This document shows, piece after piece, positions 216-34,035 of a stretch of DNA of 64,000 nt; the first letter of the stretch is position 1, and each line of letters starts with the position of its first letter. Source of the stretch: an uncultured Desulfovibrio sp. (GTDB lineage Bacteria; Desulfobacterota; Desulfovibrionia; Desulfovibrionales; Desulfovibrionaceae). Location: assembly GCA_947038175.1 (NCBI GenBank), contig CAMQVJ010000002.1, positions 11,246 through 75,245 on the forward strand. The letters run 5' to 3'. A model generated the notes under the pieces. That model had not been told where the DNA came from. It was given only the letters and a program-made list of their open reading frames with translations, and did not search any database. A program made the translations under genes and the position numbers.

Positions 216-280
216 AATACGAACAGGCTTTTGTGTTCCTTTAAAAATAATAATCTAATAAACTTCTATGAGAGCAATTT

Positions 281-2047: not shown

Positions 2048-2694
2048 TTGCAGGGCAGGGGGAAATCGTTTTTTTTGATAAAAACAATCATCAAAACTCT
2101 CATGATGCAAGGCTTGGTATTAAACCAAAATTTATTTTTGAGAATCCTGTGCTTGGCGAATCTGTAGCCATAAATGGTGCGTGCCTTACTGTGGAATCCT
2201 TTGATAATGGTATCCTTACATTTTATACTTCTGAAGAAACCTTATCTTGTTCTACCCTTGGCTTGCTTAGTTTAGGCGATAAAGTGAACATGGAAAGGGC
2301 TCTTGCTTTAGGGGACAGGCTAGGTGGACATCTCGTCAGCGGACATATTGACTGCGTCGGTAAGCTCTCTAAAATCCAGAATGTGGGTGATTCAAAATGT
2401 TTTAGAATTACTTTTTCTGAGGAAATAGCGCCCTGTATTATTCCAAAGGGTTCAATTGCCCTTGACGGAATTAGTCTAACGGTAAACACTTGCGATAATA
2501 ATTTTTTAGAGGTAAATGTTATACCTGAAACATGGAAAGTAACCAATATCTCACTTTGGAAAGAGGGACAGTTGATTAATATAGAAACCGATATGATCGG
2601 AAAATATATTCTTCGCTCTACAACTATACAACAAACGACTAAGAATATAAGCCGTATAGATACTCATTTTTTACATGAGAATGGCTTTTTATAA
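2032..2694 (+). CDS. ribE: Riboflavin synthase alpha chain
   Basis: N-terminus [12 protein letters not shown], internally duplicated lumazine-binding halves, rib operon context, 16-nt overlap with ribD. Confidence 0.9.
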
Positions 2695-2702
2695 AAGGAT
2701 AT

Positions 2703-3944
2703 ATGATGTCAATTTCAACAACTGAAAGTGCTATAGAAGACTACCGCCAAGGTAAAATGATTATTTTGGTGGACGATGAAGATCGAGAAAATGAAGGTGA
2801 CCTCACCATCGCAGCAGAATTTGTAACCCCTGAAGTTATCAATTTTATGGCAAAATACGGACGAGGACTTATTTGCATGCCCATGGATGTGGAAATGGCA
2901 GATCGTCTTGATTTACCACTTATGACACAAAGAAATGCTTCTCGTTTTGGCACAAATTTCACGGTTTCCATTGAAGCACGTGAAGGGGTGACAACGGGTA
3001 TTTCTGCAAAAGATAGAGCGCATACTATTTTAACTGCGGTTGCGGATAATGCAAAAGCGGGCGATGTAGTTACTCCTGGGCATATTTTCCCCTTGAGAGC
3101 AAGGCAGGGCGGCGTTTTAATCCGTGCTGGACAAACGGAAGGTAGTGTCGATTTTTCAAGACTTTCAGGCCTTAAACCTGCTGCTGTTATTTGCGAAATA
3201 ATGCGTGATGATGGTGAAATGGCACGTATGCCTGATTTAGAAATTTTCGCTAAAGAACATAATTTAAAAATCGCCACAGTGAAAGATTTAATAAAATATC
3301 GTATGAAGAAAGGCGAAGTTGCTGTAACACGTGTTGCTGAAGCAAAAATGCCAACTCAGTTTGGAACATTTGATATTGTTGCTTACGAAAATTCCTTAGA
3401 TAATTGCACACATATTGCTCTTGTAAAAGGCGATGTAAGTACTGGCGATCCTGTGCTTGTTCGAGTGCATAGCGAATGTTTAACAGGCGATGTTTTTGCT
3501 TCTATGCGTTGCGATTGTGGTGGGCAACTACATAGCGCCATGATGCAAATCGAAAAAGAAGGTCGTGGAATCATTCTTTATTTGCGTCAAGAAGGGCGTG
3601 GTATTGGGCTTGTTAATAAAATAAAGGCCTATGCTTTGCAAGATGAAGGTTTGGACACAGTTGAAGCGAACCTTAAGTTAGGCTTTAAAGCTGACTTAAG
3701 AGATTACGGATTAGGAGCGCAAATCCTTGTGGATTTAGGCGCACGTAGCCTTAAAATTATGACTAATAATCCTAAAAAAATCATCGGTCTAGAAGGCTAT
3801 GGTATTGAAATTGTAGAACGTATCCCCCTTGAAGAAGCTTCTTCTCACTACAATGAAAAATATCTAAATACCAAAAAAGAAAAACTTGGGCATTTATTTG
3901 GAAATAATTGTAGTATTTATACTAGTGACAGTTCCAAAGATTAG
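2703..3944 (+). CDS. ribBA: Bifunctional 3,4-dihydroxy-2-butanone-4-phosphate synthase / GTP cyclohydrolase II
   Basis: [11 protein letters not shown] (DHBP synthase) and [17 protein letters not shown] (GTP cyclohydrolase II) motifs. Confidence 0.93.
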
Positions 3945-4020
3945 TATTATAGTAACGAACATTGTTTTTAATAAAGATATAAATTAATATAAAGATATCA
4001 AGTTATTTTAAGGAGAACAT

Positions 4021-4491
4021 ATGTATCATATAAAAACCATTGAAGGACTCATGGAAGCAAAAGGGCTGAAAATTGCCATTATTGCTACTCGTTTTAATGA
4101 CTTTGTTGTCAATCCCCTTATTGGTGGTGCTGTTGATTACTTAGTTCGCCACGGTGCAAACAGAGATGATCTCACGATTATCCGTATTCCTGGTGCTTTT
4201 GAAATGCCTATTATCGCTCAAAAAGTCGCTAATAGTAAAAAATATGACGGTATTCTTGCTCTTGGAGCGGTTATCCGTGGAGCTACACCTCATTTTGATT
4301 TTGTAGCTTCAGAAGCAACAAAGGGCCTTGCTCATGTTGCGCTTGCATCAGGTGTGCCTGTTGGGTTTGGGCTTCTTACTACTGATAATATTGAACAAGC
4401 CATTGAACGTGCAGGAAGTAAAGCAGGAAATAAAGGGGTAGAATCTGCCGCTGCTCTTTTAGAAACTTTACGTGTTATGGCACAACTCTAG
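4021..4491 (+). CDS. ribH: 6,7-dimethyl-8-ribityllumazine synthase
   Basis: 156 aa, [12 protein letters not shown] and GAFEMP motifs, AGGAG RBS upstream, operon context. Confidence 0.93.
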
Positions 4492-4498
4492 GATATCT

Positions 4499-5029
4499 AT
4501 GCAAACGAATACAAAAACTCCACAAGCTGCCACAAAAGCTCCACCGCGTCGTTTGTCACGCATGAAGGCTTTTCAATTTCTCTACGGACAAGCCTTTGCA
4601 GAGGCTAAAACAGGACTGGAATTGGAAGAGTCTTTTTGTGCTTTTCCAGCGCAAGATATCAGTGAAATTGAAAACGCTACTTGTGAAGGCTTTGCCTGGG
4701 AACTTGTTTCTGGGGTATGGAGCCATTCAAAAAAGATTGACGTTGTGATTGAACAATTTGCGCAAAATTGGAAAATTGATCGTGTTGGTCGTGTTGAACT
4801 TGGGCTTTTACGCATCGCAGTATATGAAATGCTTTATAGAACCGATGTTCCCTTTAAAGTTGCTATCAATGAAGCTTTAGAGTTGAATAAATTATTCGGT
4901 GAAGAAAAATCACAAGCGTTTTTAAATGGTATTTTAGATACAATTTCAAAAGCAGCTGATGCTGGTACTTTGACAGGTCATTCTGATTCGAGAGGCTTTG
5001 CCTCTCAAACTCTCCACCAAAGGACATGA
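4499..5029 (+). CDS. nusB: Transcription antitermination factor NusB (C-terminal tail and stop codon lie inside repeat copy B)
   Basis: RRLSRMKAFQFLYG and FLNGILD NusB-type segments, conserved ribH-nusB order. I prefer the ATG at 4499 with AGGA upstream over the GTG at 4472, which overlaps ribH. Confidence 0.85.
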   Translation: MQTNTKTPQAATKAPPRRLSRMKAFQFLYGQAFAEAKTGLELEESFCAFPAQDISEIENATCEGFAWELVSGVWSHSKKIDVVIEQFAQNWKIDRVGRVELGLLRIAVYEMLYRTDVPFKVAINEALELNKLFGEEKSQAFLNGILDTISKAADAGTLTGHSDSRGFASQTLHQRT

Positions 5030-5216
5030 TGTCCTTTGGAAACCTCATATTCATGTGTTTAGTGTAAACTTTGTCATAATAAACACATATGTGGGGGCTT
5101 GCCTACCCCAAGGGCGACACCGTCGTTTACGTTTACGAGGTACGAGTAAATACGTAAATAGAGAGCTCAGATGGGGAGTTCAACTCCCCCAAAAAAAGCA
5201 ATTTGGAATGACGTGG
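4990..5216 (+). repeat. Mosaic intergenic repeat, copy B (modules P, M2, M3, H1, T)
   Basis: P is GAGAGGCTTTGCCTCTC plus the palindrome CCAAAGGACATGATGTCCTTTGG (4990..5050). 5093..5190 is an inverted near-identical match to 83..180. It ends with GGAATGAC. Confidence 0.9.
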
Positions 5217-5291
5217 ATATTTTAAAAAGTTAAGCTTCTTTAAAATATGACTATTCAATTATTATAAACCGTTAAAGTTTTGAGGTATATT

Positions 5292-7829
5292 ATGGCATTC
5301 CCTAGCCGCTATGATGCAGAAAGTATTGAATTAAAATGGCAAAAATTCTGGACAGATAATAAGTCTTTTGATTGTGAAATTGATACCACTAGACCAAAGT
5401 ACTATGTGCTTGAAATGTTTCCGTATCCTTCTGGAAACATTCATATGGGGCATGTACGTAATTACTCCATTGGTGATGTGGTCGCACGCTTTCGTCGTAT
5501 GCAAGGCTATAATGTTATGCACCCAATTGGGTGGGATGCCTTTGGCTTACCTGCGGAAAATGCAGCGATTAAGCATAATGTACAACCCGCTTCTTGGACG
5601 TATTCTAATATTGATGATATGCGTGATCAGCTAAAAAGACTGGGTTATTCTTATGATTGGCGCAGAGAAGTGGCCACATGCCACCCGAAATATTATCGCT
5701 GGGAACAAGAGTTTTTCTTGAAATGGATTGAGAAAGGACTTATTTATCGCAAAAAAGCTCCTCAAAACTGGTGTGAAGCGTGTCACACGGTGCTTGCCAA
5801 TGAGCAAGTTATAGATGGTTGTTGTTGGCGTTGCGATAGCCTTGTTGAACAAAAAGAATTAACGCAGTGGTTTTTAAAAATTACAGCGTACGCAGATGAA
5901 TTATTAGAAGACCTCAAAACCCTTGAAGGTGCTTGGCCTGACCGTGTTCTTGCAATGCAAAATAACTGGATAGGTAAATCTATCGGTGCTGAAGTTGCGT
6001 TTCCTCTTGATGGGGCTCTCGTAAATGAGGGGACTACGGATAATGCAGACGATGAAATTCGTGTTTTTACTACTCGCCCCGATACTCTGTTTGGTGTGAC
6101 CTTTATGACCTTAGCGCCTGAGCATCCACTTGTGGAAACGCTTATCAAGGGTAAAGAGAACGAAGCAGAATCACGAGCTTTTATTGAAAGAATTCGTAAT
6201 ATGGATCGCATGGCGCGCCAGTCAGACACTTTGGAAAAAGAAGGTGTTTTTACTGGGGCTTATTGTCTCAATCCCTTTACAGGCGATCAAATTCCAATAT
6301 GGCTTGGTAACTTTGTTTTAGCGGAATATGGCACAGGCGCTGTTATGGCTGTTCCTGCCCATGATCAAAGAGATTTTGATTTTGCCAAAAAATATGGAAT
6401 GAAGCTTAAAGCGGTTATATCCGCTGACGGGCATGACCTTGATGTGAATACATTAGAAGCGGCTTACACAGACGCTGGTATTATGATAAATTCTGGTGAA
6501 TTTTCAGGCCAATCTAATGAAGAAGGTAAAGCCAAGATTATCGCAAGTCTTGAAAGCAAAGGCAAAGGCAAGCAAACCGTTAATTGGCGTTTGAGAGATT
6601 GGAATATTTCTCGTCAACGCTATTGGGGCGCTCCTATCCCTGTTGTCTATTGTGATAAATGCGGTATGGTACCTGTAAAAAAAGAGGATTTACCCGTCCT
6701 TTTGCCTACCCATGTTCAACCTCAAGAGGATGGACGTTCTTCTTTAGCTGATTGTGAAGAATTTGTGAAAACTTCTTGCCCTACATGTGGGGGAGAAGCT
6801 CGCAGAGAAACCGATACTATGGATACATTTGTTGAATCCTCATGGTATTTTGCACGCTATACAGACGCTCGCAATGAAGACGCACCTTTCTCTAAAGAAG
6901 CTCTTTCTTATTGGTTGCCTGTTGACCAATATATTGGGGGCGTAGAACACGCTATTTTACATCTTTTATACGCAAGATTTTTCATGAAAGTTCTTCGTGA
7001 TCTTGACTATATTCCTGCTGATATTTCTGAACCTTTTGCGAATCTTTTAACGCAAGGCATGGTTCTTAAAGATGGCGTTAAAATGTCAAAGTCAAAAGGG
7101 AATGTTGTAGACCCAACGGATATGATTGCCACTTATGGTGCTGATACTGTTCGCCTTTTCTGTTTATTTGCCGCTCCACCTGAACGTGATTTTGACTGGA
7201 GTGATTCTGGCATAGAAGGGTCAGCAAGATTCTTACAAAGAGTTTGGCGTTTATATCAAGAATTACGTCCTGTTATTGTTTCAGGTGCGGCATGTTTTTC
7301 AAGTGCACAACACGCTGAAACGGACAAGGCAAAAGCTTTACGTTTTCGTGAACATAGCACAGTGAAAAAAGTGGGCGAAGATGTAGGAAATCGTTATCAA
7401 TTCAATACCGCTATTGCGGCGATTATGGAATTGGTAAATGAGATCTATATTGTGAAAGAAGAATTGATGCAAACAGAAAACGGCAAAATCATTCTTTCTT
7501 CTGCTATAGCAACTGTTATTACCTTGTTGACTCCTATTACTCCTCATATTTGTGAAGAGTTTTGGCATGATCTTGGAAATGCGGGAACTATTGGAGAACA
7601 AGCGTGGCCTGTTTGGAGCGAAGACGCTTTACAAAAAGATGTGCTCACTATTGTCATTCAGATTAATGGCAAGCTTAGAGGCAAAATTGAAGTTTCCTCA
7701 AAAGCCACAAAAGAAGAAATCGAAAAAGAAGCATTAGCTGAATCAAATATAGCGAAACACTTGGAAGGGCTAACGTTACGTAAAGTTATTGTTATTCCAG
7801 GAAAACTTGTAAATATTGTTGCGAACTAA
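5292..7829 (+). CDS. leuS: Leucyl-tRNA synthetase
   Basis: HMGHVRNY (HIGH) and KMSKSKGN (KMSKS) motifs. The ATG at 5292 is preceded by GAGG; the track ORF starts at a TTG at 5280. Confidence 0.97.
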   Translation: MAFPSRYDAESIELKWQKFWTDNKSFDCEIDTTRPKYYVLEMFPYPSGNIHMGHVRNYSIGDVVARFRRMQGYNVMHPIGWDAFGLPAENAAIKHNVQPASWTYSNIDDMRDQLKRLGYSYDWRREVATCHPKYYRWEQEFFLKWIEKGLIYRKKAPQNWCEACHTVLANEQVIDGCCWRCDSLVEQKELTQWFLKITAYADELLEDLKTLEGAWPDRVLAMQNNWIGKSIGAEVAFPLDGALVNEGTTDNADDEIRVFTTRPDTLFGVTFMTLAPEHPLVETLIKGKENEAESRAFIERIRNMDRMARQSDTLEKEGVFTGAYCLNPFTGDQIPIWLGNFVLAEYGTGAVMAVPAHDQRDFDFAKKYGMKLKAVISADGHDLDVNTLEAAYTDAGIMINSGEFSGQSNEEGKAKIIASLESKGKGKQTVNWRLRDWNISRQRYWGAPIPVVYCDKCGMVPVKKEDLPVLLPTHVQPQEDGRSSLADCEEFVKTSCPTCGGEARRETDTMDTFVESSWYFARYTDARNEDAPFSKEALSYWLPVDQYIGGVEHAILHLLYARFFMKVLRDLDYIPADISEPFANLLTQGMVLKDGVKMSKSKGNVVDPTDMIATYGADTVRLFCLFAAPPERDFDWSDSGIEGSARFLQRVWRLYQELRPVIVSGAACFSSAQHAETDKAKALRFREHSTVKKVGEDVGNRYQFNTAIAAIMELVNEIYIVKEELMQTENGKIILSSAIATVITLLTPITPHICEEFWHDLGNAGTIGEQAWPVWSEDALQKDVLTIVIQINGKLRGKIEVSSKATKEEIEKEALAESNIAKHLEGLTLRKVIVIPGKLVNIVAN

Positions 7830-7834
7830 TTATC

Positions 7835-8353
7835 ATGAAATTTATCTATAAAAAAATACCAATGGTGTTGTGTGCTGTGTTTGTTCTTTTTTCACTCAGT
7901 GCTTGTGGCTACACCCTACAGGGTACTCGTGCCGACACAAGAAACTCAGTGCTTGGAACGGGCGACAAAACTATTGCCATTACCAAAATTGAACAATCTT
8001 CCCTTTTTCCGTGGTTATCCTACAGCTTGCGTACAGAATTACATACTGAAATGAATATGCGTCGACTAGCAAAATGGGTTGATGTTGAGAAAGCAGATTA
8101 TACCATGGAAGCAGTATTGACCTCTTTTGAAAAACGAGCGTACATTAGTGGTGACGATGATGAAACTTTGCTGAATCTTGTTGCCGCACAATTGACAGTC
8201 ACCGTTTATGATAAAGAACACAAAACTGTTTGGACTTCTGGGCCTGTAACCTATTCAGAAAATTATGAAAATATTCGAGAAGAAGAAGCTATCCACGAAA
8301 TTATTCGTGAGCTTGTTTACATCGTTTATGATAGGATGCAAAGTACTTTTTAG
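7835..8353 (+). CDS. lptE: LPS-assembly lipoprotein LptE-like
   Basis: Lipobox LSAC-G after a hydrophobic signal, about 170 aa, conserved leuS-lptE-holA position. Confidence 0.6.
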   Translation: MKFIYKKIPMVLCAVFVLFSLSACGYTLQGTRADTRNSVLGTGDKTIAITKIEQSSLFPWLSYSLRTELHTEMNMRRLAKWVDVEKADYTMEAVLTSFEKRAYISGDDDETLLNLVAAQLTVTVYDKEHKTVWTSGPVTYSENYENIREEEAIHEIIRELVYIVYDRMQSTF

Positions 8354-8446
8354 TTTAGCATAAACTTTATAATAGAGATTTCTGTCTATATTGAAGGGAG
8401 AAAAGTTGTCACAAATTTTTCTCCCTAAAATATAATAAATACTCAC

Positions 8447-8524
8447 ATACGAGGTTTCCAAAGGACATCATGTCCTTTGGTGGAGAGTGAGAGAGGCAAA
8501 GCCTCTTTCATTGGAATAACGTAG
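8447..8524 (-). repeat. Mosaic intergenic repeat, copy C (module P inverted, followed by a T-like CATTGGAATAACG)
   Basis: The reverse complement of 8447..8506 matches 4990..5050 and 20233..20293 (GAGAGGC-loop-GCCTCTC and CCAAAGGACATGATGTCCTTTGG hairpins). Confidence 0.85.
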
Positions 8525-8561
8525 AGAGAAGTACTTTTATTAAAGTTTGGTTAAGGAAAAC

Positions 8562-9605
8562 ATGATGGAAATACCAGGATTTTATTTTTGTACTTGCCCT
8601 GATGCTCTTTTATCAAAACAGCATCTTGAATCCTTCGTGGAGTCTTTTGATAATACATGGCACGGAGATAATGCAAAAAGGCATGTCTTTTGGCCAGACG
8701 AACTAGGGAGCGATCCATTTTGGAATGCACTCACACTACAAAATCTGAGTGCTACCCCTAAAATTATTATTGTGCGAGCGGCACATACAATTCTTGCAGC
8801 GGACTGGAAAAAGATTTCTAGTGCGCTTGCCACTCCTCGCACAGCGATTTTTCCTGTCTTCTTTTTAGAGTGTGCGTGGGAAAAAGGGCAAGCAAAAATC
8901 CCTGCCCATATTGCGAAATTAAAATGTTTTGAATTTGCGAAAAAGAAAAATTGGACATACGATAATATTGGTATCAATGAGAGGACTATTTCTCAGTATA
9001 TCGGTCAAGAAGCACGAAAATTTAATTTGCAGCTGGATAAAAACACACTGTATACGCTTTGTGAAACTGCTATTCCTGATGCACAATTTATTCAAACGCT
9101 TTTATCTCAACTTTCTCTTTTTGCAGAAGATGGAAAGATCACCCCAGAAATCATTTCTCAAATAACTGCATATGCGCCTGAAATGGTGATTTTTGACTTG
9201 ATTAAAGATATGGAAAACTGCAATTTTCAAAAAATTTGGCGACGCCTTTCTCTAGAGAATGATAATGGTGAAAGCTTCCTTTTTCCTCTCATGGCTTTAC
9301 TTGCTCGTGATGCAAGAATTCTTTGGCAAATATGTGCAAAGGAAAATCCGTATATTCACCCTAGTGCGAAAGATTTTAAAATACGCCAAGCGAAGAAGTT
9401 AGGCTTTTCAGGTATAACGAAAATATTTAATATTATTTTAGAAGCCGATTTGTCTGTAAAATCTGGCAAAAACGACACCCTGCAAGCCCTAGAAAAAGTA
9501 ATTATTGATTACTCTAGTTTATTTGCTAGTAAACCATTATTTGCCTCTAAGATACTCATTAATGATATTATCATTGAATCAGAGCAAGCGAGTCGCTATG
9601 ACTAA
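8562..9605 (+). CDS. holA: DNA polymerase III delta subunit
   Basis: About 345 aa, position after leuS-lptE. ATG at 8562 with AAGGA upstream (track start is a TTG at 8547). Family call rests mainly on synteny and size. Confidence 0.6.
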   Translation: MMEIPGFYFCTCPDALLSKQHLESFVESFDNTWHGDNAKRHVFWPDELGSDPFWNALTLQNLSATPKIIIVRAAHTILAADWKKISSALATPRTAIFPVFFLECAWEKGQAKIPAHIAKLKCFEFAKKKNWTYDNIGINERTISQYIGQEARKFNLQLDKNTLYTLCETAIPDAQFIQTLLSQLSLFAEDGKITPEIISQITAYAPEMVIFDLIKDMENCNFQKIWRRLSLENDNGESFLFPLMALLARDARILWQICAKENPYIHPSAKDFKIRQAKKLGFSGITKIFNIILEADLSVKSGKNDTLQALEKVIIDYSSLFASKPLFASKILINDIIIESEQASRYD

Positions 9606-10407
9606 CATTACTGATTCAGGTCACAATGAAGAAGAAAACACAAACGCTACTGAGACCTTAGACTCACCGAGTGAAACACCCAAAAAAGAGAAGCCTCATT
9701 TTCATGGTCACAGAACTCGTCTACGAGAGCGTGTGTTAAGTAATATTCATGGTGTGGAATCTTATGAGCTTTTGGAGCTATTGTTGGGCTATGTTCATGG
9801 GCGTTCCGACACGAAGCCAATAGCAAAAGGGCTTCTTAAAAATTTTGGTTCTTTATGGGGAGTATTAAACGCACACCCAACAGAACTGGATAGTGTTGAT
9901 AATATTGGCCCGTCTTCTAAAGTTTTTTTCACATTACTCAGAGAACTTGTAGCAAGGTACTTTGTTGAGCCCATTAAAGCAAAAAAGATAGTCTCTCTCG
10001 ACGATATTGCTATGCTTGCAAGATGTATGATGGATGGTTTACCGCATGAAGAAGTTTGGATTGCTTTATTAGATAATAACAATAGGTTATTAAGTTTTGA
10101 GTGCGTTAATACTGGTTTTGCAGAAAATGTTGACTGCACTCCTCGAATGGTTGCAGAAATTGCGCTGGCAAAAAAAGCAAAGGGAATTGTCCTTGTACAT
10201 AATCACCCTGGCGGAGTGACAAAAGCATCATGGGCAGATACCGAAATTACAAGACATATTCAATCAGTGCTTTTGCATATGGGTATTCGACTGCTTGATC
10301 ATTTTATTCTTGCCGATGGAAAAATTATAAGCCTCGTTAATAATCATTTGCTCACGCAAGATGACAGCTCTGATTCCTTTTTTAAAGACAAGAATAACTT
10401 GCTTTAG
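9598..10407 (+). CDS. radC: RadC-family JAB/MPN domain protein
   Basis: HNHPGG motif in the C-terminal JAB domain, HhH-like N-terminal part. The ATG at 9598 overlaps the holA stop (ATGACTAA). Confidence 0.8.
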   Translation: MTNITDSGHNEEENTNATETLDSPSETPKKEKPHFHGHRTRLRERVLSNIHGVESYELLELLLGYVHGRSDTKPIAKGLLKNFGSLWGVLNAHPTELDSVDNIGPSSKVFFTLLRELVARYFVEPIKAKKIVSLDDIAMLARCMMDGLPHEEVWIALLDNNNRLLSFECVNTGFAENVDCTPRMVAEIALAKKAKGIVLVHNHPGGVTKASWADTEITRHIQSVLLHMGIRLLDHFILADGKIISLVNNHLLTQDDSSDSFFKDKNNLL

Positions 10408-10508
10408 TAAAAAATATTGCCAAACAATCAATAAAAGAGTAATATTTTTTTAGTTATGCTTAATAATTTTCGCCTTTTCTCACCCCTAACTCCTACGGAG
10501 AAAATAGT

Positions 10509-13168
<2,660 letters not shown>

Positions 13169-13170
13169 TG

Positions 13171-13355
13171 TTTTTTTGAGGGAAATGATTTCCCCCAACC
13201 CCCCTCATTAGCGTTTTTTTTACAAACTTTGTTTGCAAAAAAAACGCAATTTATGGGGCTTGTAGCCACCCAACGGGCGACCTATGAGATACAAACAAAT
13301 ACTGAAATAAAGTGTAGAGGCCGAGTCTCCCAAATTGGAACGACATGCCTCTACA
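13171..13355 (+). repeat. Mosaic intergenic repeat, copy D (divergent: H1 variant GGGAAATGATTTCCC, M2 core CAAACTTTGTTTGCAAAAAA, GGGGCTTGTAGCCACCCAACGGGCGACC, T module enclosed by an AGAGGC/GCCTCT stem)
   Basis: Shares ordered sequence blocks with copies B, E, F and G by hand alignment. More diverged than the other copies. Confidence 0.65.
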
Positions 13356-13362
13356 TTTTGTT
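13313..13362. terminator. Putative bidirectional intrinsic terminator between convergent lon and the response regulator gene
   Basis: 9-bp stem TGTAGAGGC/GCCTCTACA with a 25-nt loop, followed by TTTTGTTTG on the + strand and a T-rich run on the - strand. Confidence 0.45.
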
Positions 13363-13393
13363 TGTCTATCTATGATTTTAAATAATAGAAGTC

Positions 13394-14728
13394 TTAATTC
13401 TCATATTGTTTAAGCTTTGTATGCAAGGTTTTTCTTGAAATACCAAGTTGTTTTGCAGCTTCGCTTTTATTATCTTTGAGTGCTTTGAGTGTTTTTAGAA
13501 TGAAAATTTTCTCCATATCTTCAAGTGTTTGCACTTGTGGCATGTAGTCTTCTTCTACGTGTTCTGTATATTTATTTGTTATATTTTGAGGTAATTCACT
13601 CACGTCAATATAATCATTTCTTAGTAAAATTGTCGCACGCTCAATAACATTTTCAAGCTCTCGCACATTACCTGGCCAATTGTACTTAACGAGGTAATCC
13701 ATCGCTTGAGGGCTAAAGCCCTTTACAATTTTACTATTTTTAGTCGCAAATTTTTCAAGGAAATATTGAGCTAAAAGAGGTATATCTCCGCTTCTTTCTT
13801 CTAAACTTGGTACGGGTACAGTGACCACATTTAAGCGATAATATAAATCTTCTCTAAAATTTCCATTTTCCATTTCCTGCTCAAGATTTCTGTTTGTTGC
13901 TGTAACAATACGCACATCAACATGTAATGTTTCATCACTGCCCACTCTTTGTATTTCTTTTTGTTGTAGAACTCGCAGTAATTTGACTTGCATATGAGGG
14001 GATATTTCCCCTATTTCATCTAGAAAAAGAGTACCGCCATCGGCTTGTAAAAAGCGTCCGTCTCGCCGTTTATCTGCGCCTGTAAACGCTCCTTTTTCAT
14101 GTCCAAAAAGCTCCGATTCTAATAAGCTTTCTGAGAGAGCAGCACAATTCACAGCAACTAAATGTTTTAGTTTTCTTTGACTTTGATCGTGTATGGATTT
14201 TGCAACGAGTTCTTTACCTGTCCCAGATTTTCCTCGTATAAGAATAGTCGCTTCACTTGGGGCAACCATACTAATTAGATCCTTCAAATTGAGAATAACA
14301 GAGCTATTACCAATAATATCGGAGGAATGGCTGCTGCGCAGTTCTTGCATTTCCTTTTTTAGTTGGCAATGTTCAAGACTTCTCGTAAGGGTTATCTTTA
14401 ATCTATCAAAATCCAGCGGTTTCGTCAGATAATCATACGCACCAATCTTCACAGCCTCAACAGCATTTTCAATATCAGAATATGCCGTCATCATAATAAT
14501 TGGTATAGCGGGATTATATTCATGAATTTTGCTGAGCGCGAGCATGCCATCCATTTCAGGCATACGAATATCCATAAGTATGGTGTCAAAGGGCGTTTCT
14601 TGCACCATTTCAACGGCTTCTAAGCCATTTTTTGCTGAGCTTATTTGAAATTTCCATTTTTTGAGAAGAACCTCAAGCATCATACGATGCCCATTATCAT
14701 CATCAACGATAAGTATATGATTATTCAT
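13394..14728 (-). CDS. Sigma-54-dependent response regulator (NtrC/ZraR family)
   Basis: Receiver domain (DDD..D..K), AAA+ Walker A GKSGTGKE, GAFTGA sigma-54 contact motif, C-terminal Fis-type HTH. Confidence 0.92.
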   Translation of the reverse strand: MNNHILIVDDDNGHRMMLEVLLKKWKFQISSAKNGLEAVEMVQETPFDTILMDIRMPEMDGMLALSKIHEYNPAIPIIMMTAYSDIENAVEAVKIGAYDYLTKPLDFDRLKITLTRSLEHCQLKKEMQELRSSHSSDIIGNSSVILNLKDLISMVAPSEATILIRGKSGTGKELVAKSIHDQSQRKLKHLVAVNCAALSESLLESELFGHEKGAFTGADKRRDGRFLQADGGTLFLDEIGEISPHMQVKLLRVLQQKEIQRVGSDETLHVDVRIVTATNRNLEQEMENGNFREDLYYRLNVVTVPVPSLEERSGDIPLLAQYFLEKFATKNSKIVKGFSPQAMDYLVKYNWPGNVRELENVIERATILLRNDYIDVSELPQNITNKYTEHVEEDYMPQVQTLEDMEKIFILKTLKALKDNKSEAAKQLGISRKTLHTKLKQYEN

Positions 14729-14739
14729 TTTTTATTCCT

Positions 14740-16656
14740 TTATTGTGGCATACGTAGGGTTATTTTTGTTCCAACATTTTCTTTGCTTTCAATACTCACC
14801 GTTCCGTTATGGGCTTGAATTATTTTTTGCACCATAACAAGCCCTAGCCCTGTTCCGTCGGCCTTATCTGTATAATAAGGAGTGAAGAGGTTCTTAATAT
14901 TTTTTTCTGCAATACCTTTTCCATTATCGGATATGGTAATTTCTAAAACATTATCGTGGTATCGTTCATTTTTGTCTATGTTTGTGTTATTTATGTTTGA
15001 GCTGTCTTCGTCTTGTATTATGTTTTCTTCTTGTATATAGGTGCTTTCGACATGAATCACGCCCCCTTTTGGCATGCCTTGAATGGCGTTTAGGAAAAGA
15101 TTTTGTAATACTTGTATCATTCTATCTTCATCTAAAAAAACATCCTCACACTGCTCACAAAAGTTTTCAATAAAAGATATATTATTCTCACTTTGATGTA
15201 AAACTGTGTTTTTTCCTTTTTCGATAAGCTGCTTTAAATTTACTTTTTGTATGGAAATAGTGTTAGGTTTTGATAATTCTAAAAGATCACTCACCACTTT
15301 ATCTACTCGCATAACTTCTTGTGTCATAATAGTCGCTAATTTGGCATCTTCGCTGTCTTTTTCTGCGCTTTCTTCAAATAAACGAGCAAGGCCTTTAATA
15401 GAGCCCAAAGGGTTTCTAATTTCATGAGCAATTCCAGCGGCTAATTTACCAATGGACGCAAGTCTTTCTTGTCTATGTAATTCTTCCTGAAGATTTTGAA
15501 TTTCACGCAAATCTCTTAATATAATACCAAGCCCATTATTTTCATCATTTGCAATAATAGGGAATGTGTTCACTTCCACACAAATCGGATTTTCATTAAT
15601 AGGATGTAAGGTAATAGTCATATTTTTGAGATTAGTATCAACCGTTTTATTTGACAATTGAGGAATCAACTCCGTTATATTTTTACCAACACTCTCAACT
15701 TCTTTATGTTTTGTTATTAACTCTGAATTTTGGTTCATGGTCAGAATAGTGTTTTTTTGATCGAGGGTGATAATTCCAAGGGGTAAGGCGTCCATTAAAG
15801 ATAAAATATACGCCCTTCCTTCTTGTGTCATGGTATAGGATTTTTGGTATGCTCTCAAAATAAAGAAAGAAAAGATAGCAAGGAAAGATAAGAAAAGAAA
15901 ACTTATCTGCTGAATGGTGTTTTTTTCATCATCTGCAATTTGAGCGTCTTCAATATCTTTGGTGTTAAAACCTGCAATCATGGAAAACTCTTTTTTTTGC
16001 TTCAATAATTTTCTAATATTCCATAAAGTATCATCTGAAGTGAGCATACGAGAATTGGAATCAGGTCTATTATGCCCGTAAACGGCATGGCTGTTTCTTT
16101 CATTATGCATTTTAGAGGAATATCTATGCCGACGCATCATATTATTCTGATTGTTTTTACGGGTAATGGAAGTTGTTGCGACAAATAATTGTTTATTAAC
16201 AAGGTATACTTTTTTCTTTTCCATTTTTTTATTAATAGGAAAAATCAAGTCTTTCATTTTTCCATTTACCAAAGAAGAAGGAACTCTTTCTTTATCTACT
16301 TCTAGAAGTTTTTTCCCAATCAGGTTGCTATCACTAGCAACTACGGCTATGCCATCTTTGTCTACAATGGCAAGAAAATGAATATCGTCTCTATTGGCTT
16401 GCTCAATAAGTATATTTTCTACCTCTTCATTTGTCCAAATTATAGAGCTATATAATGTTGCTTCAAAAGAGTGTATAAGCGATGCGCCTTTTTCTTTTGT
16501 CAAATAGGTTACAGTATTTGTTTCCTTTTCTAAGGAATCAGACTCGGACAGGATAAAAACACCCAAGGAAAAAACACAAACTAAAAGTATCCAAGGGGCA
16601 AACCTAAGAGCAGTTGGCATTTTTCTGAGTGTATTTTGTTTGAAAAGTTTATTCAT
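14740..16656 (-). CDS. Sensor histidine kinase (two TM segments, periplasmic domain, PAS, HisKA, HATPase)
   Basis: H-box HEIRNPL, DNGKGI and GTGLGL ATP-lid motifs. Lies immediately upstream of the response regulator on the same strand. Confidence 0.9.
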   Translation of the reverse strand: MNKLFKQNTLRKMPTALRFAPWILLVCVFSLGVFILSESDSLEKETNTVTYLTKEKGASLIHSFEATLYSSIIWTNEEVENILIEQANRDDIHFLAIVDKDGIAVVASDSNLIGKKLLEVDKERVPSSLVNGKMKDLIFPINKKMEKKKVYLVNKQLFVATTSITRKNNQNNMMRRHRYSSKMHNERNSHAVYGHNRPDSNSRMLTSDDTLWNIRKLLKQKKEFSMIAGFNTKDIEDAQIADDEKNTIQQISFLFLSFLAIFSFFILRAYQKSYTMTQEGRAYILSLMDALPLGIITLDQKNTILTMNQNSELITKHKEVESVGKNITELIPQLSNKTVDTNLKNMTITLHPINENPICVEVNTFPIIANDENNGLGIILRDLREIQNLQEELHRQERLASIGKLAAGIAHEIRNPLGSIKGLARLFEESAEKDSEDAKLATIMTQEVMRVDKVVSDLLELSKPNTISIQKVNLKQLIEKGKNTVLHQSENNISFIENFCEQCEDVFLDEDRMIQVLQNLFLNAIQGMPKGGVIHVESTYIQEENIIQDEDSSNINNTNIDKNERYHDNVLEITISDNGKGIAEKNIKNLFTPYYTDKADGTGLGLVMVQKIIQAHNGTVSIESKENVGTKITLRMPQ

Positions 16657-17158
16657 ATATATGTTCTCGAATTTATAGTAATGGAAAGGGAATTATAATA
16701 ACAATAATTTATGCAAAAAATATGCCGACACGAAAATTAGCTTATTCTATGTGTAAAGATACAAACGTATATTTACATTTTTTTTATTCGTTTTTCCCTA
16801 TAAATGTCCGTTTCTAGGGTTTTTGGGCTCCATATCCTTTATATATACTTTCTCTTTATTTTTTTGAGCTTCATATAAAATGCGTAAAAAATATTATTTC
16901 TTTGATATATTCTAATCTAAGCTCAAGAGTGTGTCAAAGTTACCCAAATACCAAAAGAACAGTGTAACTTTTTTACCCATATTCTATATTTTTATATCAC
17001 AATACTTCTATTTGATTTTAGTACATTTATATTAAAAGATTAACTTTTATATTATTTCCTTATTATTTTCTCTTTTTCCGTGATTTTTTATCCATTATAT
17101 GCCGATTTTAACATAAAAAGACAAATATTTTTTAACACTGTATATGGGAATATTTTTT

Positions 17159-17174
17159 TGGCATGATACTTGCT
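17159..17174 (+). promoter_or_regulatory. Sigma-54 (-24/-12) promoter TGGCAT-N5-TTGCT
   Basis: Read as TGGCATGATACTTGCT with GG and GC at the canonical spacing, 34 nt upstream of the ATG at 17208. An adjacent divergent sigma-54 activator gene is present. Confidence 0.8.
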
Positions 17175-17207
17175 ATGAGTATTAATACTACTTTATAGGA
17201 GATTACC

Positions 17208-17753
17208 ATGAAAATTAGAAATATTATCGCTTCTTTAACTGTTATCGGTGTTTTAATTGCAGGATCAGCATTCGCTATGCCAAATGGTGCCACCCAATCA
17301 GCACAAAGCATGGAAAGTCTAAGTCTTGAACAACGTGACCAGTGGAACACACTCCATGAAGAACATATAAAAAAGGTGAGACCACTGCGTAGCAGCCTAA
17401 AAGCAAAACGCATGGAATATAAAGCTCTTATGGGGAACACGGAAGTAAGTCCTGATTATATCAGTGACCTTACAAGCGAAATAGTTGACCTTGAAAACCG
17501 AATTGAAGACAGAAATGAAGAATTTCTAAAAATATCAGAAGATAAATTTAATATAGATTTTTCATCTATGACACATAACGGTATGCGATCACACCCTAAC
17601 ACAAGGGGACATGGCAACATGAGTAATAAGCACCACGGCATGCAAAGCTCTGGTTGCATGATGCAAGAAAAGCAAATGTGTGGAAGAATGTCTGCACCTC
17701 AAAATAATGCTGAAGACAACAAAAATGATAACGCACCACAACACAACATGTAA
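17208..17753 (+). CDS. Periplasmic CpxP/Spy/ZraP-family protein with a His/Met/Cys-rich C-terminal tail
   Basis: Signal peptide ending AFA, an LSLEQ (LTXXQ-like) motif, helical heptad-like core, tail HPNTRGHGNMSNKHHGMQSSGCMMQEKQMCGRM. Arranged divergently from an HK/NtrC pair as in zraP-zraSR. Confidence 0.55.
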   Translation: MKIRNIIASLTVIGVLIAGSAFAMPNGATQSAQSMESLSLEQRDQWNTLHEEHIKKVRPLRSSLKAKRMEYKALMGNTEVSPDYISDLTSEIVDLENRIEDRNEEFLKISEDKFNIDFSSMTHNGMRSHPNTRGHGNMSNKHHGMQSSGCMMQEKQMCGRMSAPQNNAEDNKNDNAPQHNM

Positions 17754-17840
17754 GCAAAATAAAACGATAAGTTTCTTTAGCTCAATTTGTTTTTAACATA
17801 GTTTTATCTCAAACACATTTAGAATAACGCATTTAAAAGA

Positions 17841-17884
17841 ATAGAGTCACTATTTACAAAACGTAAATAAGTGACTCTATTTTT
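17841..17884. terminator. Bidirectional intrinsic terminator between convergent zraP-like and ppk2 genes
   Basis: 17-18 bp stem ATAGAGTCACTATTTAC / GTAAATAAGTGACTCTAT, loop AAAAC, followed by TTTT and preceded by an A-rich run. Confidence 0.75.
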
Positions 17885-17916
17885 ATAAGTGTGGCTAAGG
17901 CTGAAGTTTTCTAAGA

Positions 17917-19578
17917 TTACTTCTTGTCTGTCTTTTCAGCCGTTTCTGCTTTTTCTGCCTTGTCTTTTTTGTCTGTCTTTTCAGCTTTATCTTTTTTATC
18001 TTTCTTGTCTTTTTTGGCTACTTTTGCCGCTTTATTTTTATTCGCTTTATTCATTTCCTTCAAAGAAATAAGCTCTGGGACAGCATCATGGTCAGACTTT
18101 TCTTTTCCTAACGCCTTTTGAAGCGCATCTCGATACACTTTTAAAACTTCTATGCGAGCGTAAATTTTTGACTCCGCAGGTATAATCACCCAAGGGGCAT
18201 TTATTGTGTTGGTTCTCATAAACATTTCATCGGCAGCCACCTTATAAAGGGGTGTCTTTTCACGATTACGCCAATCATCTTCCGTTATTTTATAATTTTT
18301 CCAAGGAGTTTCTTCTCTATTTTTGAATCGTGTTAATTGCTCTTCAGAAGAAATATGCAACCAGAACTTGATAAGAATATTTTTATTATCAACGAGTTGT
18401 TCTTCAAAATCATTGATTTCAGAGTACGCTCGTTTCCAATCTTCAGGTTTAGCATAATTTTCTACTCTTTCAACAAGCACACGGCCATACCATGATCTAT
18501 CATAAATCGTGACATAACCCGATTTAGGAACATGTCGCCAAAAACGCCATAAATAATGATGAGCTAATTCCTCATCTGTTGGTGAACTAATAGGAATAAT
18601 TCGAGTTATTCTAGCATCAATACCCGAGGCTAGGCGTCTAATTGTTCCGCCTTTACCTCCAGCGTCCCAACCTTCAAAAATAAGAGTAGTAGATATTCCC
18701 TTAGTATAGGCTTCAAAGGTGAGTTTAAACACTTCATTTTGCAAGGCAACAAGTTGTTTTTTATATTCATTCTTTGAAATATCTTGAGAGAGGTCAACTC
18801 TATCTAGTATAGAAACACACCCGTCAGTATTTTCTGTGGCTGGTTTCATTGCAGGGGAAGCAGAAGTGAGTTTTTTATTGATTGCATGCTCGATATTATC
18901 AATCAAAGTGCGTGCAACGGCGATGTCTCTAAATTTTTTATCATACGCATCGATAATACACCAAGGCGCAAACTCCCTGTCAGACATAGGAATTGCTTTT
19001 GATACCGTGTCAATAAATTCCGTATAATTTGCGTCACTTTTTTCATCATAAGGTGTAAAGTGATAAGACATCTTATTTTTTTTGCGCTGTTCACGACGAA
19101 GTGCGTGCTCTTCCTCACTAATATGTAGCCAAAGCTTTATGATGACGCAACCTGAATCAGCAAGCGTTCTTTCAAGTTCCACTCTTTTATTCAGTGTTGT
19201 ATAGAGTTCTTCTTCTGTCATTTCGCCAGTAGAGGCCTTACGAAGAGGTTCACTATACCAACCCCCACTAAAAACACCCACCTCACCATGTTTTGGCAAG
19301 CTCATCCAATAACGCCAAGACTCTGGTCGGCTTTTGTCTTCTTCTGAGGGGTTCCAAAATGTATGATTTCGCATTTTTTTAGCGTCAAGCCAAGAGGAAA
19401 GCATGTTAACAACTTCACCTCTCCCCGCACCATCAACGCCTGTAATCGTAACGAGTACAGAAATTTTATGTTCCTCACAAGCTCTTTGTAAATCGAAAAG
19501 CTTCATATGTAATTCACTTTCGATTTTTTTGTATTCTTTTGAAGTATAGCTCTGTCCTAAAGTCATTGATCCAAACAT
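17917..19578 (-). CDS. ppk2: Two-domain polyphosphate kinase 2 family protein (polyphosphate:AMP/NDP phosphotransferase type) with a Lys-rich C-terminal tail
   Basis: Two PPK2 P-loop motifs (GVDGAGRGE and GWDAGGKGG), two tandem PPK2 halves. The ATG at 19578 is preceded by GAGGAG (track ORF starts at an upstream TTG). Confidence 0.85.
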   Translation of the reverse strand: MFGSMTLGQSYTSKEYKKIESELHMKLFDLQRACEEHKISVLVTITGVDGAGRGEVVNMLSSWLDAKKMRNHTFWNPSEEDKSRPESWRYWMSLPKHGEVGVFSGGWYSEPLRKASTGEMTEEELYTTLNKRVELERTLADSGCVIIKLWLHISEEEHALRREQRKKNKMSYHFTPYDEKSDANYTEFIDTVSKAIPMSDREFAPWCIIDAYDKKFRDIAVARTLIDNIEHAINKKLTSASPAMKPATENTDGCVSILDRVDLSQDISKNEYKKQLVALQNEVFKLTFEAYTKGISTTLIFEGWDAGGKGGTIRRLASGIDARITRIIPISSPTDEELAHHYLWRFWRHVPKSGYVTIYDRSWYGRVLVERVENYAKPEDWKRAYSEINDFEEQLVDNKNILIKFWLHISSEEQLTRFKNREETPWKNYKITEDDWRNREKTPLYKVAADEMFMRTNTINAPWVIIPAESKIYARIEVLKVYRDALQKALGKEKSDHDAVPELISLKEMNKANKNKAAKVAKKDKKDKKDKAEKTDKKDKAEKAETAEKTDKK

Positions 19579-19709
19579 AAAACGCTCCTCGGTTATACAG
19601 ATTTCTTTCGTAACCAATACTAAACGCCATGAATCTAAGAAAAGGAAGGGAGTAAAAAGGACATGTAAATATTTATTCTGTCATATTTTTGGTGAGATTT
19701 TCCAGTGTG

Positions 19710-20132
19710 TTATTTCAATTCACCTGCATCTATTAGTAACTCAAAATCCTTGCTTTTACCTATACCCGTTTGGATGCATGCATTTTCGCCACAGAAATTA
19801 ACAATAGACCATGCAGATTTACCCGCAGATAGAAAATCAAAGTAATAAACACCACTTGCACGAAGTTTTAGGTTATAACCACCATAGGCTCTCATAATTG
19901 CTTCCGCAAATTGCTTAATTTCGACATAGTGTACGGGCATAATTTTATAGGAAAAACTTGCGGTATCTGTATTATTTTTAATGGTAAAATCTTTTTCATT
20001 TTTCTTCACCACTTCCCAGCCGTACGGTAATTCTAAAACTAAAAAGTTAAAATCCTCTTTGAATGCGTATGCTTTTTGAGAAGGAAAGAAAAACAAAGAG
20101 GAAAGGAGAATAATTAATAAAGCTCGTTTCAT
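19710..20132 (-). CDS. Secreted hypothetical protein
   Basis: An internal ATG at 20132 preceded by AGGAG gives MKRALLIILLSSLFFFPSQKAYA as the signal peptide. No family recognised. Confidence 0.5.
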   Translation of the reverse strand: MKRALLIILLSSLFFFPSQKAYAFKEDFNFLVLELPYGWEVVKKNEKDFTIKNNTDTASFSYKIMPVHYVEIKQFAEAIMRAYGGYNLKLRASGVYYFDFLSAGKSAWSIVNFCGENACIQTGIGKSKDFELLIDAGELK

Positions 20133-20232
20133 GGTAACTCCTGTGGAATATTGATTGAATATAACTGAATTTTTGAGAGTAATCAAGATAAAATACATAT
20201 TTTCCCTTTAATGGCATCTTCAATCCTAATAT

Positions 20233-20458
20233 GAGAGGATTTGCCTCTCACACTCTCCACCAAAGGACATGATGTTCTTTGGAAACCTCATATTTATGTA
20301 TTTTTATAAATTTTATTTGCAAAAAACACATAATATAGGAGGGGCTGCCAGAGGCTATCAAAGGTCGTTTGCGTTCAGGAAAAATGAATAAATACGCAAA
20401 TAGAGAACCAAGGTGGAGAGTTCAACTCCACCTAAAAAAAGCAACTCAGAATGACATG
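20233..20458 (+). repeat. Mosaic intergenic repeat, copy E (P, M2, M3, H1 variant GGTGGAGAGTTCAACTCCACC, T)
   Basis: Same module order as copy B with many substitutions and indels. Ends with CAGAATGAC. Confidence 0.85.
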
Positions 20459-33634: not shown

Positions 33635-33780
33635 ATATAACCTCTTTCTAACATTTTAAACATAAACAAATTTTTATAAACATAGCTTATTTAAATAAGC
33701 AAAAATAAGATAGCTTAAATCCATTTTTTTCTCAAGGTATAAGAACACTTTCTTATTATTTTTTACTGGGATTTAAGTTT

Positions 33781-33947
33781 ACTTTTTTTGGGGGAGTTGA
33801 ACTCCCCCAAGCCCCCACATATGTGTTTTGTGTAAACACTAATATATGAGGTTTCCGTCACCCCCGACGGGCGGCGTACCTGTTTACGCTTACAAGCATA
33901 ACGAGTAATTACGCAAAGAGAAAGCAACTTCTCTCAAATTGGAATGA
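33781..33947. repeat. Mosaic intergenic repeat, copy F (H1, M2 inverted, M3 forward, T), flanked by 29-bp direct repeats 33752..33780 and 33948..33976
   Basis: GGGGGAGTTGAACTCCCCC. AAGCCCCCACATATGTG..TGTAAAC..ATATGAGGTTTCC is the reverse complement of copy B M2. GTTTACGCTTAC..AGTAATTACGCAAAGAGA matches M3. Ends CAAATTGGAATGA. The flanking repeats are 27/29 identical. Confidence 0.85.
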
Positions 33948-34035
33948 CTTATTATTTTTTACAGGGATTTAATTTTCAAAAATTTAAAAATGTGAACTTT
34001 TTTAAAAAGGAAAATAAAAAATTGTATGTCTTTTC

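Follow-up and report, generated by a model that had tools for sequence, protein, structure and literature searches.

A MITE (miniature inverted-repeat transposable element) of the DDE type is expected to carry a target-site duplication. Repetitive extragenic palindromic sequences (REPs) keep their palindromy by compensatory change, and bacterial interspersed mosaic elements (BIMEs) bind integration host factor (IHF) and gyrase (PMC2817692). Here we describe a family of short, hairpin-rich repeats from a 64,000-nt stretch of the genome of an uncultured Desulfovibrio sp. (contig CAMQVJ010000002.1, positions 11,246–75,245; hereafter, the window), one copy of which occupies window positions 20219–20458. 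The family is bounded by inverted repeats, inserts between genes, and varies among strains and species. We consider it likely that it is a non-autonomous, non-coding interspersed repeat family, resembling MITEs as well as BIMEs and the REP doublets known as REPINs, that has inserted into intergenic DNA of a low-GC lineage of Desulfovibrionaceae. Literature searches covering Desulfovibrio and Desulfovibrionaceae yielded no relevant account of repeats of this kind.

A reading of the DNA letters without any database search (hereafter, the sequence-only reading) had listed seven sites sharing the blocks P, M2, M3, H1, and T, and this sharing is confirmed here as going far beyond chance; all seven sites were also read directly. 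A repeat search of the window aligned positions 58–184 with 5089–5215 (127 nt, 94% complementary), 4980–5060 with 20223–20303 (89%), 4977–5066 with 8431–8520 (82%), and 8437–8517 with 20223–20303 (85%), along with several further H1 and M2 pairs among the copies. The H1 hairpin (GGGGAGTTSAACTCCCC, at most two mismatches) yielded 5 matches with 0.01 expected, and the P palindrome was found at 3 sites with 0 expected. Sensitive blastn of every copy against the window returned the seven sites and nothing else convincing. The copies vary in size from 84 to 242 nt, within the range of about 50–500 bp that characterizes non-coding MITEs, and contain short open reading frames (ORFs) only, whose frames are inconsistent between copies. 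All seven are situated between called genes, as the sequence-only reading had it, the sole exception being the left 56 nt of copy B, which are fused to the nusB ORF.

The window belongs to scaffold_71 (107 kb) of ENA ERZ28620936, and with both flanks it makes up 83 kb of continuous sequence. Further copies do exist: two more sites are found on the scaffold outside the window (-8349..-8093 and +70699..+70780), three copies are present as spurious ORFs elsewhere in public data, and related elements occur in five other genomes. This gives 9 sites in 83 kb of one scaffold, all between called genes, a density that, if uniform, would correspond to a few hundred copies in the whole genome. The window LeuS is 73% identical to that of Candidatus Mailhella, 70% to that of Mailhella massiliensis, and 78–84% to those of closer relatives, and we therefore place the host in the Desulfovibrionaceae near Mailhella. 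It is a low-GC member of the family, from a gut sulfate-reducer lineage. The relatives compared were L009 (the closest, 84% LeuS identity), L010 (45% GC), L011 (31%), L019 (30%), and M. massiliensis (L018, LT706951.1; 61%), to which we added a strain contig, L016, that is 97.5% identical to the window strain, the metagenome-assembled genome (MAG) CAYJIB01 (44%), and a metagenomic contig, L012 (57%).

Alignment of 18 hairpins from six genomes revealed that H1 and the P palindrome, which had been listed as distinct blocks, are variants of one unit type. The unit spans about 45 nt: a lead rich in A/T or in C comes first, then a GC-rich palindrome whose T-G/A-A center is invariant, the triplet AAR, and finally a C-run (AAGCCCCCTCAT, AAGCCCCCACAT, or AAACCTCATAT); the motif at the hairpin foot is TGWGGGGGYTT (AARCCCCCWCA on the other strand). 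Pairing within the palindrome is maintained in 95.5% of the alignment cells, and 8 of the 11 pairs have changed on both sides, in 45 cells. The paired-change score was reached by none of 500 shuffles and collapsed when the partner was slid. Covarying arms include GGAC/GTCC, GGGT/ACCC, and GGAA/TTCC in the P palindrome and GAGTT/AACTC, GAAAT/ATTTC, and GAGAT/ATCTC in H1, while the innermost T-A pair never varies. A third palindrome type, found in L019 and L011, follows the same logic. In addition, the C-run is echoed, i.e., the 3′ arm is followed by AAR and a second C-run (GCCTCTC AAA CTCTCC; CTCCCCC AAG CCCCC), and the unit of L012 has such an echo as well (GCCCCA C ACCCCG). A triple-helix or mirror-repeat reading of the echo was considered and dropped, and the echo is given as an observation. 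The pattern is exact for hp1 in the window and in L012; H1 shows it in part, and the P palindrome does not show it.

The palindromes are perfect to one central base (8+1+8, 9+1+9, 11+1+11), as might be expected of double-stranded binding sites for a host protein, e.g., a nucleoid protein, gyrase, a recombinase, or a regulator, which has been proposed for the BIMEs of E. coli. The adjacent A/T runs, which could bend DNA, and the conservation of the unit sequence across genomes of 31–45% GC are in line with such a role, as is the binding of IHF and gyrase by BIMEs. We nevertheless regard it as improbable. The arms vary among lineages, but always on both sides together, which is the signature of base-pairing and not of independent half-site contacts, and by eye neither the T block nor M3 fits the IHF, sigma-54, or sigma-70 consensus; no promoter-like match was found inside M3 either. 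Since the innermost pair is invariant and a conserved T-G-A triloop accounts for the palindrome equally well, we withdrew the equation of a perfect palindrome with a double-stranded DNA site.

Many units lie just after gene ends, and H1 resembles the stem of a true terminator (GGGGAGCTTAGCTCCCC with a T8 run) at window position +70641. That the copies are transcription terminators, intact or decayed, which merely look like a repeat family is, however, very improbable indeed. On one strand, the stem of every copy has the T-run on its 5′ side, and on the other strand it has an A-run on its 3′ side, so that H1 is not a canonical terminator, as had been noted from the sequence; an intrinsic terminator has a GC-rich stem-loop with a 3′ T-run within 0–2 nt on the transcribed strand. 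The family hairpins are absent from the 28 terminator-like sites scanned in window positions 1–20000, a region that covers copies A–D, and genuine terminators with a 3′ T-run adjoin several copies. Moreover, the similarity between copies spans 100–240 nt and includes non-hairpin blocks.

Where two units in opposite orientation enclose a variable long hairpin (M2), a foldback element results. Such inverted doublets were observed in copies B and E, in the L009 counterparts L009-B and L009-D, and in L010, L011, and L019; in L010, a clean full element of 340 bp with inverted ends of about 45 nt is situated at 17300–17640. The sequence of M2 differs among copies, while its arms remain complementary. 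The predicted folds pair both ends, with z-scores relative to shuffled sequences of -5.9 for copy B, -4.2 for copy E, and -9.4 for a third element.

Elements of the B type have three additional components, namely, T-block terminal inverted repeats (TIRs) of 14–18 nt, the hairpin hp1 in the left arm, and the 71-nt module M3 in the right arm. The T block of copy B is inverted at the two ends (CAGGTCATTCTGA at 4974 versus CACGTCATTCCAA, reverse-complemented, at 5215); of 14 positions, 11 agree between the left end and the reverse-complemented right end. Copy C terminates in this block as well, and the L009 copy carries it on either side (CACGCCATG...ATGGCGTG). It had rightly been described as an end block, but since it recurs inverted on the left of copy B and on both sides of the L009 copy, it is a TIR. 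Searched as a loose 14-mer with 3 mismatches, the T block is not enriched (10 matches, 11.9 expected), and hence only copies with 0–1 mismatch and aligned ends carry weight. M3 is a separate module that always adjoins a hairpin foot, in B-type elements exactly that of the right arm. Copies A, B, E, and N have it between GGGGGYTTG and H1, and on its far side, in F and N, it borders on GGAAACCTCATAT, where the P palindrome would otherwise be expected.

These observations simplify the grammar of the family. The sequence-only reading had the blocks freely combined in varying orientations, with P(inverted)-T in copy C and an inverted M2 in copy F. Copy C turns out to be a reversed B-type left arm, made up of the T block, hp1, and the P palindrome, and the supposedly inverted M2 of copy F is the other arm of the long M2 hairpin; because of this, much of the apparent shuffling disappears. 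The mosaic itself is real, but it is largely composed of foldback elements, TIRs, half-elements, and one nested M3.

The window contains nusB, leuS, lptE, holA, radC, lon, the gene of a sigma-54 response regulator, hemC, and hslU, and several of these genes allow comparison of occupied and empty sites. The spacing between nusB and leuS is about 260 nt in the window versus 14 nt in L011, 15 in L019, 53 in L010, and 64 in M. massiliensis, and with such short spacing the site of copy B is empty in these four relatives. Copy B has overwritten the nusB stop codon, so that the public NusB model ends in 17 element-encoded residues (GHSDSRGFASQTLHQRT; window 4974–5029). Similarly, lptE and holA abut or overlap (0–2 nt apart) in L010, L011, and L019, whereas in the window they are about 200 nt apart with copy C between them. 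In L009, related elements are situated in the nusB-leuS and lon-regulator gaps, at slightly different positions and with different stems, which suggests that these and the window copies are independent insertions.

Differences between copies point to exchange among them. In the strain contig L016, copy A lacks exactly the 71-nt M3 (101–171), H1 being joined directly to CTAACCCCCACAT. For about 100 nt, the M3, H1, and A-run tract of the window copy A shows no difference from its counterpart in copy B, while the adjacent M2 and T block differ strongly; the T block of copy A resembles that of the upstream copy N. This pattern indicates recent copying between dispersed sites, either by module transposition or by gene conversion.

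Outside the scaffold, the family is sparsely distributed. The pattern of H1 with its A-run matched the CAYJIB01 MAG only, among 185,579 species-representative genomes, and had no matches in the JGI metagenomes; three pattern scans of viral contigs returned none. A spurious 75-residue ORF across copy B provided another probe: since just three other ORFs with M3 and H1 were found among about 15 billion proteins, the B-type element is restricted to the lineage. Matches P0143–P0146 from the exhaustive ORF search are unrelated low-complexity tandem repeats and were discarded. The P-unit pattern gave a single match in the JGI metagenomes, at 8488–8595 of L012 (OFJB01000003.1), whose proteins cluster with those of Verrucomicrobia bacterium Tous-C9LFEB. 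This P-type unit follows the serA stop codon and comprises a hairpin, CACCCCG, CCAAAGGAAATGATTTCCTTTGG, AAACCTCAT, and a long hairpin, an order equal to that of the family (hp1, C-run, palindrome, AAACCTCAT, long hairpin); we estimate the probability of such a match by chance at about 0.02 or less.

One recurrent position is that downstream of lon, where a unit is present in the window species, L009, L010, L011, and L019. The next gene differs in each of these relatives, and hence the region downstream of lon is a synteny breakpoint. Units of the form TTTTTTT GGGGGAAATGATTTCCCCC AAGCCCCCTCA, 88–95% identical to the unit of copy D, were found in L010, L011, and the CAYJIB01 MAG (31–45% GC). In the same MAG, two M3-like modules in tandem are located immediately upstream of dsrA (L002, CAYJIB010000002.1, 3530–3830), the second one containing an assembly gap (a run of N), and a T-run/hairpin unit directly follows the dsrB-dsrD stop codon (6835–6940).

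This positional recurrence, together with the folding, bears on a possible role of the repeats as structured RNA selected by the host, which would act in operons and untranslated regions on mRNA stability, mRNA processing, or expression of neighboring genes, the spread being secondary. Several observations are compatible with it: the strong folding (z = -4.2 to -9.4) with compensatory stems and an invariant loop center, the presence of copies B and C inside the nusB-leuS-lptE-holA string, where they must be read through, the unit downstream of lon in five species, the tandem M3-like modules just upstream of dsrA, and the orientation of M3, which points toward a gene start in five of the seven window-scaffold copies and in both MAG copies. 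On the other hand, no element is present at the B and C sites of four relatives, so that the genes there can do without one. Relative to transcription, copies are found in either orientation, with copy C reversed and copy A pointing at a gene end; mismatched positions of the M2 stems show no consistent strand signal (G-U versus A-C); and no Rfam family matches. On balance we find this explanation unlikely.

As to the mechanism, mobile repeats of this kind would be mobilized in trans, by an enzyme whose gene lies elsewhere in the genome, and ectopic gene conversion may exchange segments between copies, producing the mosaic. Copies inside operons would, judging from their position, be co-transcribed and fold in the mRNA. 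On our preferred, though tentative, view, the mobilizing enzyme would be found among the Y1/HUH enzymes, either similar to the REP-associated tyrosine transposases (RAYTs) or to those of IS200/IS605 insertion sequences (ISs), and not among the DDE transposases; it would recognize the hairpins on single-stranded DNA and cut at their foot. Consistent with this are the lack of target duplications, the conserved loop with covarying stems, the conserved foot motif, and the module junctions that fall exactly at the hairpin foot, as is the like compensatory behavior of REPs (PMC2817692). For a DDE-type MITE, the terminal inverted repeats are the favorable observation, against which stand the missing target duplication and the missing parent IS.

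A Y1 transposase gene is indeed found in the sister genus Mailhella. M. massiliensis has no unit in the 22.5 kb compared, but just after the lon terminator, at 17795–18510, it carries an IS200-type element with a 152-residue Y1 transposase (PF01797), and it thereby occupies the intergenic slot in which five low-GC relatives have hairpin units. An attempt to link the units to the ends of this element (CCCCCAGCTAGGCTGGGGG, CCACCGGCTATGCCGGTGG) was abandoned, as there is no alignable similarity. This mismatch of ends counts against a Y1/HUH enzyme, and so do the absent GTAG motif and the fact that no RAYT was seen in the 83 kb or in the loci of relatives.

A more specific version, which we hold to be somewhat more doubtful still, is that the units are recognition hairpins of a REP/RAYT- or HUH-type single-stranded DNA system outside the Gammaproteobacteria, with a foot motif of its own, cutting and joining at the foot, and M3 captured there. 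The occurrence of near-identical units in genomes of 31–45% GC, and of a unit in the Verrucomicrobia contig L012, would be in accord with an enzyme that is conserved, moves horizontally, and constrains its sites.

Returning to the broader proposal of a mobile non-autonomous repeat family, a number of observations weigh against it. No target-site duplication is seen at the ends of copies B, L009-B, A, N, or C, with the reservation that the flanks are AT-rich and the ends defined to 2–3 nt, so that a 2-bp duplication could be missed. No parent element or mobilizing gene was found in the 83 kb, the GTAG motif that REPs have is absent, and the ends of the Mailhella IS200 show no clear similarity to the units. 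Gene conversion between copies would account for the strain difference in copy A no less than transposition would. Finally, the units downstream of lon, 88–95% identical in several species with GC contents of 31–45%, could reflect selection at the host level instead of selfish spread.

Comparison with Rfam and with plasmid and phage collections yielded no name for the repeats. At the gathering threshold, Rfam matched tRNAs and a thiamine pyrophosphate (TPP) riboswitch only (window and eight loci), none of them at the copies; in E-value mode, no match above chance overlapped the copies, the best being CrcZ (E = 0.38) and BTnc231 (E = 9.8), far below gathering. Plasmid and phage collections contained no DNA match. 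A transposase domain was detected in none of the called genes of the 83 kb, in keeping with the sequence-only reading of the window, nor in the loci of relatives, apart from the unrelated IS200 of M. massiliensis. Two candidate functions were also rejected. A tRNA-like T-arm in H1 would have, by eye, an A-C mismatch at the 52–62 pair, and ARAGORN finds tRNA-Phe only. Small peptide genes (MWGL..., MGSSTPPKK...) are contradicted by frames that shift between copies and by variable codons that are the palindrome-compensating ones.

The individual copies in the window are as follows. Copy A (58–225, minus strand), delimited by the repeat search and direct reading, comprises, on the plus strand, a T block (CACGTTATTTGAATTTA, 58–74), a T-run (75–82), H1 (83–100), and a reverse-complemented M3 (101–171), followed by CAAACCCCCAGAT and the M2 hairpin (172–225). 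Copy B (4974–5215, plus strand; 242 nt) is the most complete element. Its left arm contains the left TIR (CAGGTCATTCTGATTC, 4974–4989), hp1 (GAGAGGCTTTGCCTCTC, 4990–5006), a C-rich echo (5007–5016), and the P palindrome (5017–5039), and is followed by AAACCTCATAT (5040–5050), the M2 hairpin (5051–5090), and GTGGGGGCTTG (5091–5101); the right arm consists of M3 (5102–5172), H1 (5173–5189), an A-run (5191–5197), and the right terminal repeat (GCAATTTGGAATGACGTG, 5198–5215). Copy C (8440–8523, minus strand), the reversed left arm between lptE and holA, reads on the plus strand as ATACGAGGTTT (8447–8457), the P palindrome (8458–8480), TGGAGAGTGA, hp1 (8491–8507), and the T block TCATTGGAATAACGT (8508–8523).

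Copy D (13171–13358, plus strand) starts with a T-run (13171–13177), the hairpin GAGGGAAATGATTTCCCCC (13178–13196), and AACCCCCCTCATTA (13197–13210), and continues with the long M2 hairpin up to 13262 and a partial M3 from 13263; its T block (13331–13344) is enclosed in the hairpin GTAGAGGC..GCCTCTAC. Just before it, at 13123–13168, a perfect (AAT)x15.3 microsatellite begins at the lon stop codon, so that TAA triplets run on behind the gene; L009 has 2–3 units only at this place. Copy E (20219–20458, plus strand), 75% identical to copy B over 261 nt (blastn), has a degenerate left end (20219–20232), hp1 (20233–20249), an echo (20250–20259), the P palindrome (20260–20282), AAACCTCATAT (20283–20293), M2 (20294–20339), GGAGGGGCT (20338–20346), M3 (20347–20411), the H1 variant GGTGGAGAGTTCAACTCCACC (20412–20432), an A-run (20434–20440), and the T block GCAACTCAGAATGACATG (20441–20458). 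Direct reading of its H1 shows that, through two substitutions, a perfect 7-bp stem has newly arisen in a shifted register.

Copy F (33776–33948, plus strand) contains a T-run (33784–33790), H1 (33791–33807), AAGCCCCCACATATGTG with an M2 arm, ATATGAGGTTTCC up to 33857, M3 (33858–33920), the hairpin AGAGAAAGCAACTTCTCT, and the T block (33935–33948). It is flanked by direct repeats of about 28 nt at 33745–33775 and 33948–33977 (TTATTATTTTTTAC[T/A]GGGATTTAA[G/T]TTT), which are far too long for a normal target duplication and in part resemble a degenerate inverted T block. Copy G (63312–63436, plus strand), situated just 3′ of the canonical glyS terminator, is a half element with a T-run (63312–63319), H1 (63320–63336), AAACCCCACAT, and the M2-like hairpin TCAAACTTTGTTTGA.

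Some further structures adjoin the repeats or share their palindromic character. In L013, a 77-nt inverted pair (1286–1362 and 2195–2271, window about -8434..-7449; 92% identical) brackets one element copy and a gene with an EVE domain and may form a composite unit with them. Both members consist of a long perfect palindrome (GAGGGGGAAAACC...GGTTTTCCCCCTC) with AAACTCCCCC after it, and because of this pair the start of the Tex gene is called differently on two identical contigs. On the other flank, the terminator at window +70641..+70665 (80361–80385 of the extended sequence) is canonical, with the almost H1-like stem GGGGAGCTTAGCTCCCC and the T8 run on the 3′ side, and precedes a family unit by about 40 nt. 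At 63448–63517, just 3′ of a minus-strand gene encoding a 251-residue protein without a Pfam match, there is a perfect 30-nt inverted repeat with a 10-nt spacer. Its core resembles a bidirectional terminator (AAAAAACAGCC...GGCTGTTTTTT) and is lengthened by 19 further perfect pairs; its weak Rfam matches to miRNA precursors are surely spurious. An array with a 9-nt period (17912–18046; units such as TTTGTCTGT and CTTTTCAGC, with periods of 27 and 45 also scored) is found at the stop-codon end of a minus-strand PPK2-family gene (17917–19617) and presumably encodes a lysine-rich C-terminal repeat.

If the density of 9 sites per 83 kb holds genome-wide, the family is a major unannotated component of this gut sulfate-reducer lineage. 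Its practical consequences are seen in assemblies and annotations. Metagenome assemblies break at the repeats, e.g., the strain contig L006 ends inside copy F (its position 17 corresponds to window 33828), and gene calls are corrupted, as in the NusB model that runs 17 codons into copy B and in the Tex start that differs on identical contigs. The repeats also mark synteny breakpoints, the genes downstream of lon being different in each relative. Masking and strain typing would become possible with models of the unit, M3, and the T block, and the family offers a compact test case for the assembly of mosaic repeats out of hairpin units. Should a Y1/HUH enzyme be responsible, the reach of REP/RAYT-type biology would grow to include a new phylum-level group.

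How the family relates to described systems can be judged feature by feature. Like REPs, REPINs, and BIMEs (Nunvar et al., 2010, PMC2817692; Bertels and Rainey, 2011, PMC3116915), it consists of short, GC-rich, extragenic palindromic units with a conserved hairpin-foot motif, which occur singly, as inverted doublets around a spacer (foldback), or in mosaics with other motifs. Compensatory palindromy, the lack of target duplication, and lineage-specific unit sequences are common to both as well. REPs are imperfect palindromes of 20–40 nt, and elements of their kind number more than 100 per genome. Unlike in REPs, the foot motif is TGWGGGGGYTT (AARCCCCCWCA) and not GTAG (or GTGG) at the 5′ foot, the units include an A/T run, and the B-type elements have TIRs of 14–18 nt outside the hairpins. 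The host belongs to the Desulfovibrionaceae and not to the Gammaproteobacteria, and a RAYT gene flanked by units was not seen in the 83-kb scaffold sequence or in the loci of relatives. The proposed likeness to BIMEs and REPINs thus holds for the hairpin-rich mosaic and the intergenic position, but not for membership, as the defining GTAG is absent.

The enterobacterial repetitive intergenic consensus or intergenic repeat unit (ERIC/IRU) elements and the Correia elements, both reviewed as MITEs (PMC10969869), share with the family a length of 80–350 bp, the non-coding and multi-copy character, TIRs, and folding into long hairpins. Intergenic, co-transcribed positions, copy numbers that differ between related genomes, and an occasional in-frame fusion to a neighboring ORF (nusB in our case) are further similarities. 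Wilson and Sharp are said to have traced longer ERIC variants in 2006 to internal insertions of about 70 bp, which parallels M3. The differences from these MITEs are the lack of a detectable target-site duplication and arms made of discrete small hairpin units instead of one continuous imperfect palindrome. No related full-length IS is known, and the family is not known to share sequence similarity with the ERIC or Correia elements.

With IS200/IS605 and the palindrome-associated transposable elements (PATEs), the family shares subterminal hairpins and the lack of target duplication, and recognition of hairpins on single-stranded DNA in the IS200/IS605 manner would explain a conserved loop with a covarying stem. 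The ends of IS200/IS605 are not inverted repeats, however, whereas the elements described here are inverted, and the hairpins of the Mailhella IS200 (CCCCCAGCTAGGCTGGGGG, CCACCGGCTATGCCGGTGG), in which the C-arm comes first, do not align with the units. Overall, the family works like REPINs/BIMEs and foldback MITEs while failing one defining feature of each, i.e., the GTAG motif of REPs and the target duplication of MITEs, and it is a new sequence family within an ordinary kind of bacterial element, that of the MITEs and REP/BIMEs.

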